A stretch of DNA of 64,000 nucleotides from Escherichia coli (GTDB taxonomy: Bacteria; Pseudomonadota; Gammaproteobacteria; Enterobacterales; Enterobacteriaceae), in the NCBI RefSeq assembly GCF_003334355.1, contig NZ_QOWP01000019.1. One strand, 5' to 3'. The notes beneath the pieces are model-generated. The model searched no databases. It worked only from the letters and a program-made list of their open reading frames with translations, and was not told the origin of the DNA. The position numbers and the translations under genes are program-made. The first letter of the stretch is position 1. Every line of letters begins with the position of its first letter. Positions 18,256 to 46,608 of the stretch are shown one piece after another.

Positions 18256-18483
18256 TTACTGATCCAGTTCGACCATCTCTTTCACGTCAGTACGGTTGAT
18301 CTGCTGTTTGTTGCCATTAGCGTCTTTATACGAAATCATACCGGTATCGTTATCAGTCTGTGGTTTGCCGTCAGAGACGATGGTACGTCCGTCATTGGTG
18401 TGCATCACATAGTTCGAACCGGAACAGGCGCTCAGGGCAAAAGTCAGCATACAGGCAGAAATAATTGCGGCAGTCTTTTTCAT
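18256..18483 (-). CDS. ygdI: DUF903 small lipoprotein YgdI
   Basis: 75-aa ORF with a signal peptide and lipobox LSAC; paralog of YgdR in this window. Confidence 0.88.
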
Positions 18484-18674
18484 CATCTTCTCCTTAAAGC
18501 GATTAATAAATCTTAATAGTATTGATTAACAGGCTAAAATTAACGCCTAACACTATTCAGCATATGTTACTTACGCGGCTTCGCCAGGATATCCAGATAA
18601 TTCTGATGGTTAGCACTCTCCTTGTATCAAAGTGAATTTTGCGTCACGATCGGTGCATCAAGCCGAGGAGTACC

Positions 18675-19880
18675 ATGAACGTTTTTAATCCAGCGCAGTT
18701 TCGCGCCCAGTTTCCCGCACTACAGGATGCGGGCGTCTATCTCGACAGCGCCGCGACCGCGCTTAAACCTGAAGCCGTGGTTGAAGCCACCCAACAGTTT
18801 TACAGTCTGAGCGCCGGAAACGTCCATCGCAGCCAGTTTGCCGAAGCCCAACGCCTGACCATGCGTTATGAAGCTGCACGAGAGAAAGTGGCGCAATTAC
18901 TGAATGCACCGGATGATAAAACTATCGTCTGGACGCGCGGCACCACTGAATCCATCAACATGGTGGCACAATGCTATGCGCGTCCGCGTCTGCAACCGGG
19001 CGATGAGATTATTGTCAGCGTGGCAGAACACCACGCTAACCTCGTCCCCTGGCTGATGGTCGCCCAACAAACTGGAGCCAAAGTGGTGAAATTGCCGCTG
19101 AATGCGCAGCGACTGCCGGATGTCGATTTGTTGCCAGAACTGATTACTCCCCGTAGTCGGATTCTGGCGTTGGGTCAGATGTCGAACGTTACTGGCGGTT
19201 GCCCGGATCTGGCGCGAGCGATTACCTTTGCTCATTCAGCCGGGATGGTGGTGATGGTTGATGGTGCTCAGGGGGCGGTGCATTTCCCCGCAGATGTTCA
19301 GCAACTGGATATCGATTTATATGCTTTCTCTGGTCACAAACTGTATGGCCCGACGGGTATCGGCGTGCTGTATGGCAAATCAGAACTGCTGGAAGCGATG
19401 TCGCCCTGGCTGGGTGGCGGCAAAATGATTCACGAAGTGAGTTTTGACGGCTTCACGACTCAATCTGCGCCGTGGAAACTGGAAGCTGGAACGCCAAATG
19501 TCGCTGGTGTCATAGGATTAAGCGCGGCGCTGGAATGGCTGGCAGATTACGATATCAACCAGGCCGAAAGCTGGAGCCGTAGCTTAGCAACGCTGGCGGA
19601 AGATGCGCTGGCGAAACGTCCCGGCTTTCGTTCATTCCGCTGCCAGGATTCCAGCCTGCTGGCCTTTGATTTTGCTGGCGTTCATCATAGCGATATGGTG
19701 ACGCTGCTGGCGGAGTACGGTATTGCCCTGCGGGCCGGGCAGCATTGCGCTCAGCCGCTACTGGCAGAATTAGGCGTAACCGGCACACTGCGCGCCTCTT
19801 TTGCGCCATATAATACAAAGAGTGATGTGGATGCGCTGGTGAATGCCGTTGACCGCGCGCTGGAATTATTGGTGGATTAA
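18675..19880 (+). CDS. csdA: Cysteine sulfinate desulfinase CsdA
   Basis: ATG at 18675 preceded by gaggag gives the 401-aa MNVFNPAQF start; the ORF-track start at 18639 is an upstream extension. Confidence 0.92.
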
Positions 19881-20323
19881 TGACAAACCCGCAATTCGCC
19901 GGACATCCGTTCGGCACAACCGTAACCGCAGAAACGTTACGCAATACCTTCGCACCGTTGACGCAATGGGAAGATAAATATCGCCAGTTGATCATGCTGG
20001 GGAAACAGCTTCCGGCATTGCCAGACGAGTTAAAAGCGCAGGCTAAAGAGATTGCCGGATGCGAAAACCGCGTCTGGCTGGGATATACAGTGGCTGAAAA
20101 CGGCAAAATGCATTTCTTTGGCGACAGCGAAGGGCGCATTGTGCGCGGCCTGCTGGCGGTGTTGTTGACTGCCGTTGAGGGGAAAACCGCCGCCGAGTTG
20201 CAGGCACAGTCACCACTGGCATTGTTTGATGAGCTGGGATTACGTGCGCAGCTTAGCGCCTCACGTAGCCAGGGGTTAAATGCGTTAAGCGAGGCGATTA
20301 TCGCTGCGACGAAGCAGGTTTAA
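19880..20323 (+). CDS. csdE: Sulfur acceptor CsdE (YgdK, SufE-like)
   Basis: 147-aa ORF; start overlaps the csdA stop (taatg). Confidence 0.92.
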
Positions 20324-20336
20324 GCACAGAACCGGG

Positions 20337-20366
20337 TCGGATAAGACGTTCGCGTCTCATCCGACC
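20337..20366. repeat. REP-like palindrome between convergent csdE and tcdA
   Basis: gtcggataagacg...cgtctcatccgac. Confidence 0.55.
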
Positions 20367-20373
20367 TGATTGT

Positions 20374-44240: not shown

Positions 44241-44720
44241 TGGATAGCCGTTTTTATTCACCTTTTCTGTGGATAGAGTTGTGAAGAACTACGGAATTAC
44301 TACGGGAAAACCCGGAGCATTCTGAATAAGCCCGATATAGACATTTTAAAATATTCATTATTAGTCAATGCATTACATGTAATTTGAGTAATGAAAAAGA
44401 GTAATTCGTGACCCAGGTCACACCTCTCATTTACGGGTTGGCGAAAGATCAACCAATGCCGTATTTATCCACAGAATGTGCCACTAAGTTAAGCACTGAA
44501 CCACTAAAAACTGGAGTTTCGTCGCACGTCAAGGCTGTAAATGGAAACAGTAGTGGAGGTTTTTCACAGTTATCCCAGCTTTCTGTGGATAACATGGTGT
44601 AAGATCCTGTTTATTTTCAGTGACCAGATTTGGAAAACCCGTTGCAGTGTTGCGCAACTCGATTACCGGCAACCTAAAAAGCAATATAAATCAGAGAATT
44701 GAACAACGCATGTGGAAAAA
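44241..44720. promoter_or_regulatory. DnaA-box cluster consistent with DARS2 (DnaA-reactivating sequence 2)
   Basis: Perfect TTATCCACA boxes at 44465-44473 (+) and 44584-44592 (-), 8/9 matches at 44268-44276 and 44711-44719; DARS2 is known to lie in the rppH(ygdP)-mutH intergenic region. Confidence 0.6.
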
Positions 44721-44780
44721 GTTACACTGCGAATATTCGGCACATAATTGCTGTTTGTTTTTTAACCAAGGTATCATGAC

Positions 44781-45470
44781 ATGTCCCAACCTCGCCCACT
44801 GCTCTCTCCTCCCGAAACTGAAGAACAGTTGTTAGCGCAAGCACAGCAACTTTCTGGTTATACATTGGGAGAACTGGCGGCACTTGCCGGGCTGGTTACG
44901 CCAGAGAATTTAAAACGCGATAAGGGCTGGATTGGCGTGTTACTGGAGATCTGGCTAGGTGCCAGCGCAGGGAGTAAACCTGAGCAAGATTTTGCTGCTC
45001 TGGGCGTGGAACTTAAAACTATCCCTGTGGATAGTCTTGGTCGTCCGCTGGAAACAACATTCGTTTGTGTTGCCCCGTTAACGGGCAATAGCGGGGTGAC
45101 CTGGGAAACCAGCCACGTGCGCCACAAACTCAAACGCGTACTGTGGATACCGGTTGAAGGCGAGCGCAGCATCCCGCTGGCGCAGCGTCGCGTTGGATCA
45201 CCGTTGCTGTGGAGCCCGAATGAAGAGGAAGACCGGCAGCTACGCGAAGACTGGGAAGAATTAATGGATATGATTGTTCTCGGTCAGGTTGAGCGGATTA
45301 CCGCTCGTCACGGGGAGTATTTACAGATACGACCGAAAGCAGCGAATGCGAAAGCGCTTACCGAAGCCATTGGTGCCCGGGGCGAACGGATTCTGACGCT
45401 GCCGCGCGGCTTTTATTTGAAGAAAAATTTCACCAGTGCGCTGCTGGCCCGTCATTTTCTGATCCAGTAG
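44781..45470 (+). CDS. mutH: Methyl-directed mismatch repair endonuclease MutH
   Basis: 229-aa ORF recognised as MutH. Confidence 0.96.
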
Positions 45471-45538
45471 CCATCGCTTTGACCTGCCGCTTTCCGGGCA
45501 TATAATTACCGCTTCATTTTTTTGGCAGGGCTTTTTAG

Positions 45539-46252
45539 ATGTTATTTGCATGGATAACCGATCCTAACGCCTGGCTTGCGCTCGGTACGCTGACGCTGCT
45601 GGAGATCGTTCTTGGGATCGACAATATTATTTTCCTTTCTCTGGTGGTGGCAAAGCTTCCCACAGCACAACGTGCTCATGCGCGCCGTCTGGGGTTGGCG
45701 GGAGCCATGGTTATGCGTCTGGCGCTGCTGGCATCAATCGCCTGGGTTACGCGCCTGACAAATCCGCTTTTTACAATATTCAGTCAGGAAATTTCTGCCC
45801 GTGACTTGATTCTGCTTCTGGGTGGCTTGTTCCTTATCTGGAAAGCCAGCAAGGAAATCCACGAATCCATTGAAGGTGAAGAAGAAGGGCTGAAAACACG
45901 CGTTTCATCATTCCTCGGCGCTATCGTGCAGATTATGCTGCTGGATATTATCTTCAGCCTCGACTCGGTGATTACCGCTGTGGGTCTGTCAGATCACCTG
46001 TTTATTATGATGGCAGCCGTGGTGATTGCCGTAGGCGTGATGATGTTCGCCGCGCGCTCGATTGGTGATTTTGTCGAACGCCATCCTTCGGTAAAAATGC
46101 TGGCGCTCTCTTTCCTGATTCTGGTGGGCTTTACCCTGATTCTGGAAAGTTTCGACATCCACGTACCGAAAGGTTACATCTACTTCGCGATGTTCTTCTC
46201 TATTGCGGTTGAAAGCCTCAACCTGATTCGCAACAAAAAGAACCCGCTCTGA
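45539..46252 (+). CDS. ygdQ: TerC-family inner-membrane protein YgdQ
   Basis: 237-aa polytopic membrane ORF recognised as YgdQ. Confidence 0.88.
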
Positions 46253-46389
46253 TACTCCGTACGCTCTCCTGCGGGAGGGCGTACTCACTCCTGTTACCCT
46301 CACAGTTTAAGATTTTCCTGCTTTCAAGATATATAACGTCAGTTTATAAACAGACTATTATCATAGGTGGGCCAAATGAGGATAACCGG

Positions 46390-46608
46390 ATGAAAAAATG
46401 GGCAGTAATAATTTCTGCAGTCGGACTGGCGTTTGCTGTTTCCGGGTGTTCCAGTGATTACGTCATGGCGACCAAAGATGGCCGTATGATTTTGACCGAT
46501 GGAAAACCTGAAATTGATGATGATACCGGGCTGGTGAGTTATCACGATCAGCAAGGTAACGCGATGCAAATTAACCGTGATGATGTTTCGCAAATTATTG
46601 AACGTTAA
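46390..46608 (+). CDS. ygdR: DUF903 small lipoprotein YgdR
   Basis: 72-aa ORF with signal peptide and lipobox (VSGC); clear paralog of YgdI at 18256-18483. Confidence 0.88.

Follow-up and report, generated by a model that had tools for sequence, protein, structure and literature searches.

YgdI and YgdR of Escherichia coli: two DUF903 lipoprotein paralogs and a possible role at the cell envelope

Two lipoprotein genes and their transcription units

The stretch of 64,000 nucleotides that we analyzed (the window) is E. coli chromosomal DNA carrying two small genes, ygdI and ygdR, both already named in the RefSeq annotation ("YgdI/YgdR family lipoprotein" and "lipoprotein YgdR," respectively). 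A preliminary description of this DNA had reported open reading frames (ORFs) of 75 and 72 amino acids, and we located both where it had placed them (Table 1). As it had also described, the genes lie on opposite strands about 28 kb apart (start-to-start distance, 27.9 kb) and beside unrelated neighbors: gcvA, GcvB, and csdA for ygdI, and ygdQ and tas for ygdR. The mechanical ORF of ygdI is slightly longer (18256..18486, 76 amino acids, beginning MMKK), and the 75-amino-acid RefSeq form starts from the second ATG, at 18483. The AAGGAG motif has a spacing of 6 nt relative to the second ATG but 3 nt relative to the first, which makes the second the better-placed start.

Table 1. Features of ygdI and ygdR, with positions counted from the first letter of the window
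Feature	Position	Strand	Description and basis
ygdI CDS	18256..18483	minus	75 aa + stop, 228-nt gene; DUF903 lipoprotein precursor; ORF and RefSeq
ygdI Shine-Dalgarno AAGGAG	18490..18495	minus	6 nt upstream of the ATG at 18483; putative, read from the sequence, spacing inferred
ygdI signal peptide	18427..18483	minus	residues 1-19; predicted from the sequence and the family lipobox pattern
ygdI lipobox LSAC	18424..18435	minus	Cys20, predicted lipidation site
Mature YgdI	18259..18426	minus	56 aa, Cys20 to Gln75; six-stranded small beta-barrel
Candidate sigma-S-type -10 element C-AATACT for ygdI	18518..18524	minus	read by eye; putative
GC-rich hairpin shared by the convergent GcvB and ygdI 3' ends	18211..18232		terminator scan
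ygdR CDS	46390..46608	plus	72 aa + stop; DUF903 lipoprotein precursor; ORF and RefSeq
ygdR Shine-Dalgarno GAGGA	46378..46382	plus	7 nt upstream of the ATG; putative, read from the sequence
ygdR signal peptide	46390..46446	plus	residues 1-19; predicted from the sequence and the family pattern
ygdR lipobox VSGC	46438..46449	plus	Cys20, predicted lipidation site
Mature YgdR	46447..46605	plus	53 aa, Cys20 to Arg72; Sm/SH3-like small beta-barrel
Terminator-like hairpin after ygdR	46613..46637	plus	terminator scan; 10 pairs, then AGATTTTTCT

Each gene has its own ribosome-binding site. The terminator-like hairpin directly 3' of ygdR suggests, as far as sequence can tell, that this gene is monocistronic. 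The ygdI gene, which lies 16 nt from gcvB and about 350 nt from gcvA, is bounded at its 3' end by the complementary strand of the GcvB terminator hairpin (Rfam GcvB match at 18034..18239, 199 bits). On the plus strand, that of GcvB, the hairpin is followed by a run of eight T's; on the minus strand, that of ygdI, eight A's precede it and no U tract follows, and the minus-strand RNA has a fold of -16.4 kcal/mol (z = -2.7).

What controls the expression of the two genes? The candidate -10 element of ygdI was called against what we take to be the sigma-S -10 consensus. A scan of the window for the RcsB box, presumably TNRGAN4TCYNA, returned three matches, a count no greater than that expected by chance, and none was near ygdR. 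A partial RcsB-box look-alike, TAAGATTTTCCTGC, was seen by eye at 46308..46321, upstream of ygdR. Published data describe ygdI as sigma-S dependent (PMC6153362, PMC5437024, PMC5105897) and less expressed in a cpxRA mutant, and ygdR as Rcs induced; both genes are strongly raised upon inhibition of LolCDE (PMC5105897). Because no canonical RcsB box was found and the sigma-S -10 element was read by eye, we take the division of the pair between regulons from the literature. The small RNA SroC originates in the gltI operon. A statement that it derives from the ygdR mRNA (PMC12803456) was unsupported here, as no Rfam SroC match at the gathering threshold occurred anywhere in the window.

Relationship of the pair and distribution of the family

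Both proteins match Pfam DUF903 (PF06004), YgdI at 8.7e-24 (residues 25-73 of the 76-amino-acid ORF form) and YgdR at 2e-24 (residues 23-71). Each match covers model positions 1-49, that is, the entire 49-position model, the span that we used to define membership. Against the full-length NCBIfam profile NF033216 ("YgdI/YgdR family lipoprotein"), YgdI scored 113.2 bits and YgdR 105.9 bits, compared to a curated cutoff of 42 bits. We therefore regard it as practically certain that both are DUF903 family lipoproteins, and they differ from that family in nothing.

The clear homology proposed for the two proteins was borne out by BLASTP, with 43 of 72 residues identical over the full length (60%; E, 1e-31). 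Could this similarity be confined to the signal peptide? The mature parts alone aligned with 31 of 53 residues identical (58%; E, 5e-23), which rules out that possibility and shows that the likeness is not a signal-peptide artifact. The motifs described as common to YgdI and YgdR are indeed present (DGRTIV/DGRMIL, DGKP, and QQINR/MQINR). The claim of a common lipobox holds for its type and position (Cys20, with Ser at +2) but not for its sequence, which is LSAC in YgdI versus VSGC in YgdR.

A tblastn search revealed no third copy in the window, and the whole E. coli chromosome NZ_OL790696.1 has DUF903 genes at two places only. Among complete E. coli genomes, ygdI was present in 5426/5426; the ygdR region was missing from 2 of the 5,426, and a few others carry an insertion sequence nearby. 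The synteny of both genes is the same in Salmonella, and both are under purifying selection (omega of 0.12 for ygdI and 0.04 for ygdR). The two genes are old, independently transcribed paralogs encoding acidic lipoproteins of about 6 kDa. The pair itself is already known: the genes are annotated, the family is named (its name encodes the paralogy), and the structure of YgdR is solved. For these reasons, it carries little weight as a finding about the window.

The DUF903 family is small, its members are always single-domain, stand-alone proteins, and a check of its distribution found it confined to Gamma- and Betaproteobacteria. No recurring neighbor was found across six unrelated chromosomal contexts, and we therefore dropped guilt by association as a route to function. 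In Halopseudomonas, both members of a tandem pair are of the YgdR type (49% mutually identical), indicating that DUF903 pairs arise independently, and we rejected the idea of two ancient subfamilies that form an obligate heterodimer. A phage origin was also rejected, as the PHROGs matches were weak and all started at residue 1, so that they included the signal peptide; matches in phage collections were to bacterial contigs or short unannotated fragments. Profile matches to giant proteins (P0150, P0195, P0207, P0214, and P0218) were to eukaryotic FN3-repeat proteins whose sole resemblance to the family is a short QYKDAxG motif that recurs many times, and we attribute them to chance rather than homology.

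Outside the window, hundreds of ColE1-type plasmids of 2.5 to 4 kb carry DUF903 lipoprotein genes as near-sole cargo. We counted 381 plasmid records encoding a DUF903 lipoprotein, 278 of which are predicted to be mobilizable. One 2.5-kb ColE1-type plasmid, from Enterobacter hormaechei and near full length in 212 records, encodes only Rop, one hypothetical ORF, and a DUF903 lipoprotein; on a 4.1-kb Mob plasmid, two DUF903 genes in tandem accompany an MbeD exclusion gene. The DUF903 genes occupy the cargo position of ColE1/ColRNAI plasmids, by mob/rop, and in this resemble the small lipoproteins of ColE1-type plasmids (colicin release/lysis, MbeD-type exclusion), but they do not belong to those families: their products are DUF903 proteins by sequence, with 44 to 62% identity to YgdI/YgdR over the mature parts. 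PADLOC models, at E values up to 0.01, identified no family for YgdI, YgdR, two plasmid DUF903 proteins, or two plasmid hypothetical ORFs, and membership in a known anti-phage defense system was rejected on this basis. The hypothetical ORFs had no NCBIfam match either.

Structure, sorting, and proposed role

The PDB entries 2jn0 (NMR) and 3fif are identical in sequence to residues 21-72 of YgdR, and solved DUF903 homologues include 5cai, 2ra2, 2rd1, 3bdu, 2rb6, and 2k57. These structures are named only "putative lipoprotein," "uncharacterized lipoprotein," and the like, with no function attached. YgdR is placed in SCOP family b.38.1.6 (cited in bioRxiv 10.1101/140376). The fold has six strands arranged as an Sm/SH3-like small barrel, which starts 2 to 4 residues after the lipidated Cys; the mature domain of YgdI and YgdR is a single barrel of this type of about 50 residues. 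Most of the conserved columns (G13, D12, G20, T28-G29, D35, and G38) are turn residues, whose conservation may only hold the fold together. This leaves few residues, K21-P22 and Y33, that could form part of a binding surface.

The lipobox Cys (Cys20 in both proteins) was invariant in 61 mature family sequences. In the Lol pathway, Asp at +2 leads to retention in the inner membrane. Both YgdI and YgdR have Ser at this position, and across the family it is S, A, G, T, or L and never D; outer-membrane sorting is therefore predicted. Published data are available for both proteins: YgdI is called a "verified lipoprotein" in a gene table (PMC8767339), YgdI-His has been measured in preparations of outer membrane and of vesicles (PMC8284480), and YgdI and YgdR were both detected by membrane proteomics (PMC3210124).

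On the basis of these results, we propose the following model. The Sec-type signal peptide ends in a lipobox whose Cys20 is almost certainly processed by the Lgt/LspA/Lnt pathway, and Ser at +2 would mark the protein for outer-membrane delivery by Lol. Mature YgdI and YgdR each consist, with near certainty, of one six-stranded barrel held 2 to 4 residues from its lipid anchor. With almost no tether, the barrel would lie flat on the periplasmic leaflet of the outer membrane, out of reach of the peptidoglycan; its periplasmic orientation is an assumption of the model. The barrel is too small for enzymology and has no candidate catalytic residues, which makes a non-enzymatic role most likely. It may bind or cap another outer-membrane component, such as a porin turn, another lipoprotein, or lipid head-groups, and so help the envelope tolerate damage. 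Both copies probably have the same biochemistry deployed by different stress circuits, sigma-S (with a Cpx effect) for ygdI and Rcs for ygdR, which would amount to regulatory subfunctionalization. A non-enzymatic binding module on the periplasmic face, with its copies under different stress regulons, is a tentative reading that we rate somewhat below an even chance; the explanation as a whole, identity and mechanism together, we hold to be about evenly balanced between right and wrong.

Other stress-induced enterobacterial outer-membrane lipoproteins include MliC, YbaY, Slp, OsmB, and SlyB. They are non-enzymatic protective or structural factors and, like YgdI and YgdR, small lipobox-anchored proteins. 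We propose, by analogy, that YgdI and YgdR may have a role of this kind. Two of these genes, mliC and ybaY, are listed with ygdI and ygdR among those induced by a Lol inhibitor (PMC5105897), and a lipoprotein proteomics table that includes YgdI/YgdR also has Slp and YbaY (PMC3210124). The literature consulted gives no biochemical function for either protein, in agreement with the preliminary description; it likewise names neither a binding partner nor a ligand and describes no clean loss-of-function phenotype, and our analysis could derive none of these. The sole fitness effect found, that ygdI transposon insertions are favored in trimethoprim and sulfamethoxazole (PMC8767339), may be a neighbor effect on gcvB/gcvA.

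Other readings and what the pair means

Does the Sm-like fold imply Hfq-like rings that bind nucleic acid or form a pore? Sm and Hfq proteins carry an N-terminal helix. The DUF903 model has none, and its sequence identity to the Sm/Hfq/Lsm and WYL small barrels is only 6 to 19%; moreover, DUF903 proteins are exported and lipid anchored, away from cellular RNA, whereas those proteins are cytoplasmic. Chain counts vary among the PDB entries (2, 3, 6, and 7 chains per entry), which suggests crystal packing, the NMR structure of YgdR itself is one of two single-chain entries, and a survey citing the SCOP placement doubts homology (bioRxiv 10.1101/140376). DUF903 proteins and these barrels likely have a fold but not a function in common, with no sign of ring assembly or RNA binding, and we consider the ring hypothesis highly improbable. 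Equally improbable is that the genes are redundant leftovers kept by chance. No clean phenotype is reported, and the ygdR region can be lost or lie near an insertion sequence, as that idea would have it; against it stand strong purifying selection, near-universal presence in E. coli, synteny with Salmonella, detection of both proteins (PMC3210124), and strong stress induction of both genes (PMC5105897), and it is already disfavored. One could also picture surface-exposed proteins, or proteins mainly of vesicles or the biofilm matrix, whose role would lie in adhesion or vesicle biology and not inside the periplasm. YgdI-His is packaged into outer-membrane vesicles, more so after peroxide (PMC8284480), the names YgdI/YgdR occur in several vesicle proteome papers, and the matrix proteome of a Pseudomonas biofilm is said to include a YgdI/YgdR lipoprotein (PMC10656689). 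However, the lipoprotein YfeY shows a similar rise with peroxide, proposed to be a general property of outer-membrane lipoproteins (PMC8284480), so the vesicle result is not specific to YgdI. The literature yielded no experiment on surface exposure, and a bare barrel of 53 to 56 residues lacks adhesin-like repeats or extensions. We judge this reading quite unlikely.

A further potential explanation is that DUF903 proteins are self-sufficient, selectable envelope-protection factors, with ygdI and ygdR as the chromosomal, stress-regulated members. They would act at the outer membrane as decoys, blockers, inhibitors, or exclusion or immunity factors against bacteriocins, type VI effectors, phage, or conjugative entry. 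This would account for the repeated duplication of DUF903 genes and for their place as near-sole cargo on small plasmids of Enterobacter, Klebsiella, and Salmonella. Consistent with it are the 381 plasmid records (278 predicted mobilizable), the 212 records of the 2.5-kb Rop/hypothetical/DUF903 plasmid, the tandem pair on the 4.1-kb Mob plasmid, and an independent report of a 4,448-bp plasmid with two DUF903 copies (bioRxiv 10.1101/2023.01.12.523727). In addition, a correlation is reported in Serratia between a DUF903 cluster and type VI secretion loci (PMC12165300), and ygdI and ygdR are listed beside the lysozyme inhibitors ivy and mliC among genes induced by Lol inhibition (PMC5105897). Membership among the lysozyme inhibitors themselves (Ivy, MliC/PliC type) was rejected, with no match in sequence or fold. 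We regard both a protective function in general and the particular attackers and modes named here as unlikely, and we retain the non-enzymatic binding module as our preferred reading.

YgdI and YgdR are conserved, abundant, and strongly stress-induced outer-membrane lipoproteins. The plasmid cargo suggests that a single DUF903 gene can be worth carrying alone, and this observation gives a practical handle for finding a phenotype. A function, once assigned, would enlarge the picture of envelope stress by one element and overturn nothing.

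Homology and integrity of ygdI and ygdR

Do YgdI and YgdR resemble each other beyond their export signals? BLASTP aligned the two proteins with 43/72 identities (E 1e-31), and 31/53 identities (E 5e-23) remained once both signal peptides had been removed, which bears out the preliminary description of the pair as homologous paralogs. The motifs DGRxI, DGKP and QINR, named there as shared, all fall within the alignment. The lipobox, said to be the same, agrees in type, position (Cys20) and +2 residue (Ser) but not in sequence (LSAC versus VSGC). The two genes share 60% nucleotide identity and their synonymous sites are saturated (pS 0.81), indicating that the duplication is old. 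No additional DUF903 copy was detected in the window by tblastn, and the same search of an entire E. coli chromosome (NZ_OL790696.1, filed among plasmids) returned two DUF903 places only. We have next to no doubt that ygdI and ygdR encode two lipoproteins of the DUF903 family.

The coordinates and lengths previously assigned to both genes were right, as judged from the ORF list, RefSeq and Shine-Dalgarno spacing. The AAGGAG of ygdI lies 6 nt from the second ATG versus only 3 nt from the first, making the second the better-spaced start. The window is E. coli chromosome. A 1.1-kb stretch around ygdI, annotated gcvA/ygdI/csdA, is matched in every one of the 5,426 complete E. coli genomes, in most of them at ≥99% identity. 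The 0.6-kb stretch around ygdR (ygdQ/ygdR/tas) has a match in 5,424; the two genomes that lack it altogether suggest that ygdR is dispensable in rare strains. An IS1 element sits within this stretch in one strain (NZ_AP027829.1).

Coordinates of ygdI, ygdR, neighboring features and DUF903 relatives
Feature	Sequence	Coordinates	Strand	Remarks
ygdI mechanical ORF	window	18256..18486	minus	76 aa, begins MMKK
ygdI annotated gene	window	start 18483 (second ATG)	minus	RefSeq; 228 nt, 75 aa
Candidate sigma-S-type -10 of ygdI	window	18524..18518		C-AATACT
gcvB sRNA gene	window	18034..18239	plus	Rfam, 199 bits
gcvB and ygdI stop codon	window	18034..18262		16 nt apart, opposite strands
ES036 (CssrF) sRNA	window	21255..21297	minus	Rfam 46.5 bits (gathering score 37.6)
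tRNA-Met (CAU)	window	22725..22801		one copy
lgt	window	about 40.3-41.2 kb		transfer from record L004, 26483..27358
ygdR ORF	window	46390..46608	plus	72 aa, mechanical ORF list
Terminator-like hairpin near ygdR	window	46613..46637		
OmrA/OmrB-family sRNA genes, tandem	window	51221..51308, 51424..51505	minus	Rfam 96.6, 86.1 bits
ygdR, annotated	Salmonella houtenae AGRM01000002.1	34068..34211		144 nt
ygdR, full ORF	Salmonella houtenae AGRM01000002.1	33993..34211		72 aa, intact
YgdR-type tandem pair	Halopseudomonas record (L009)	4544..4762, 5001..5219		beside GGDEF-EAL gene
DUF903 gene	small plasmid L001	1499..1726		
DUF903 genes	small plasmid L002	2854..3081, 3103..3336		
DUF903 gene	small plasmid L003	4954..5187		

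Genomic setting and expression

In the window, ygdI lies between gcvB and the divergent csdA, and ygdR between ygdQ and tas; both look monocistronic. Transcripts of ygdI run into the complement of the GcvB terminator hairpin, which has A8 before it, ACAUUAAUCACU after it and no U tract, so under strong induction ygdI transcription might run on into the region antisense to gcvB. The same gene arrangement, with ~29.5 kb between the genes, occurs in Salmonella enterica subsp. houtenae, which places the dispersed pair before the Escherichia-Salmonella split. In the houtenae record the annotated ygdR start appears to be mis-called, the full ORF including signal peptide and lipobox.

Between the two genes lie the envelope genes mltA and amiC together with lgt, whose product, a diacylglyceryl transferase, begins the lipid modification of lipoproteins like YgdI and YgdR; this location is probably a coincidence. 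The single tRNA-Met (four tandem copies in E. coli HS, two in S. houtenae) looks like copy-number variation of a tandem array, and the three 110-bp units that are missing explain why coordinates in the window and in HS differ by 330 bp. Transferring coordinates from HS places ES036 between tcdA and mltA, on the downstream side of mltA, and the OmrA/OmrB position matches that of the pair annotated in Salmonella, which is flanked by an aas homologue and the gene of a LacI-family regulator.

Membrane proteomics detected both proteins in E. coli O157:H7 (PMC3210124), and His-tagged YgdI was tracked in outer-membrane and vesicle fractions (PMC8284480). A LolCDE inhibitor raised ygdI 25-53 fold and ygdR 8-12 fold, the former listed there as RpoS-induced and the latter as Rcs-induced on peptidoglycan damage (PMC5105897). 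Expression of ygdI was lower in a Citrobacter cpxRA mutant, in a paper that also cites strong RpoS dependence (PMC6153362), and the Salmonella ygdI orthologue is one of the sigma-S-controlled small proteins (PMC5437024). A cathelicidin peptide and an acid shift each produced a modest rise of both genes. Insertions in ygdI were favored under trimethoprim and sulfamethoxazole (PMC8767339); we suspect a neighbor effect, since ygdI abuts gcvB/gcvA, controllers of one-carbon metabolism. This literature on regulation and proteomics gives no biochemical function for either gene. Compared with consensus sequences, ygdI has a plausible sigma-S-type -10, and no canonical RcsB box was found in the sequence for ygdR; we do not count these readings as evidence. 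Between E. coli and Salmonella, dS is much lower for ygdI (0.35) than for ygdR (1.63), and GC3 is higher (0.55 versus 0.38); this contrast may reflect high-expression codon bias, constraint from nearby gcvB or just the few sites (~48).

The DUF903 family on chromosomes and plasmids

A profile built from four mature domains, searched against 1.84 billion cluster representatives, recovered only 200 proteins at E ≤0.001 (70 at E ≤1e-10), many of them frameshifted or truncated gene calls, and no informative domain fusions. Eukaryotic FN3-repeat proteins make up a few giant matches; they share a short repeated motif by chance and were rejected. Enterobacterales, Aeromonas, Vibrio, Halopseudomonas and a single Bordetella species account for the named members. 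Of the C-termini, the YgdR type (...IIER/VIER/IMER) is widespread, whereas the YgdI-type tail (...ELDQ/ELDN/EIPH) was found in Enterobacterales and on plasmids. A third subfamily, of 77 aa, occurs on chromosomes of Enterobacter, Proteus and Pseudocitrobacter and is missing from E. coli. Outside the window, neighbors differ each time across six genera: a subtilase-family (Peptidase_S8) gene in Aeromonas, an aldehyde dehydrogenase gene and IS66 element in Bordetella, a GGDEF-EAL gene in Halopseudomonas, minCDE in Vibrio, carAB in Enterobacter and nrdAB in Proteus. Both members of the Halopseudomonas tandem pair are YgdR-type and 49% identical, which argues for independent duplication and led us to reject two ancient partner subfamilies as the source of DUF903 pairs. 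This tandem occurs in Halopseudomonas genomes and metagenome contigs.

A tblastn search of 72,556 plasmids with YgdI matched 381 records, which come largely from Enterobacter, Pantoea, Klebsiella and Salmonella; 278 are predicted to be mobilisable. A 2,495-bp ColE1-type plasmid, its backbone nearly full-length in 212 records, carries only Rop, one unnamed ORF and one DUF903 lipoprotein. On a 4,096-bp Mob plasmid, two distinct DUF903 genes form a tandem; 39 records contain a near-complete copy of this module, and 264 have its first gene. An independent preprint describes a 4,448-bp plasmid with the same two-copy arrangement (bioRxiv 10.1101/2023.01.12.523727). On ColE1/ColRNAI plasmids of 2.5-5.3 kb, one or two DUF903 genes are nearly the sole cargo. 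The accompanying unnamed ORFs had no match in NCBIfam or PADLOC.

Possible roles of the mature barrel

We regard it as nearly certain that YgdI and YgdR are exported and that each mature part forms a single small, rigid and acidic barrel (pI about 4.2-4.7); the proteins should be lipid-modified at Cys20 and, having no Asp at +2, should be delivered to the outer membrane. An alignment of 61 mature sequences (YgdI, YgdR, 57 clean full-length representatives and two plasmid copies) showed the predicted lipid-anchor Cys in every one, followed at +2 by S, A, G or T, by L in a single case and never by Asp; the spacer between Cys and strand 1 is only 2-4 residues long. The top-conserved columns (G13, K21-P22, D25, T28-G29, Y33, D35 and G38) are mostly turn positions. 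So short a tether would hold the barrel on the membrane surface, unable to span the periplasm, and the small size of the mature part (53-56 residues), conserved chiefly at turns, suggests that it is not an enzyme. Most economically, the barrel would bind or cap some other component of the outer membrane without enzymatic activity and be made in quantity under envelope stress, each paralog answering to a different regulon. We propose this mechanism tentatively, as a possibility rather than an expectation.

That DUF903 lipoproteins protect against attack from outside is favored by their presence on small plasmids but weakened by the absence of any defence, toxin or inhibitor signature, and we consider this reading unlikely. 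A role at the surface, in vesicles or in biofilm seems less probable still, and an Hfq-like ring highly improbable. The same low standing is given to the view that both genes are functionless relics, which omega between E. coli and Salmonella (Nei-Gojobori; 0.124 for ygdI, 0.042 for ygdR) contradicts: both genes are functional.

The preliminary observation is correct and its interpretation supported; the feature itself is ordinary and already known. The most interesting item seen concerns its relatives, not the window: small plasmids offer little passenger room, so the DUF903 gene they carry probably pays its way alone.
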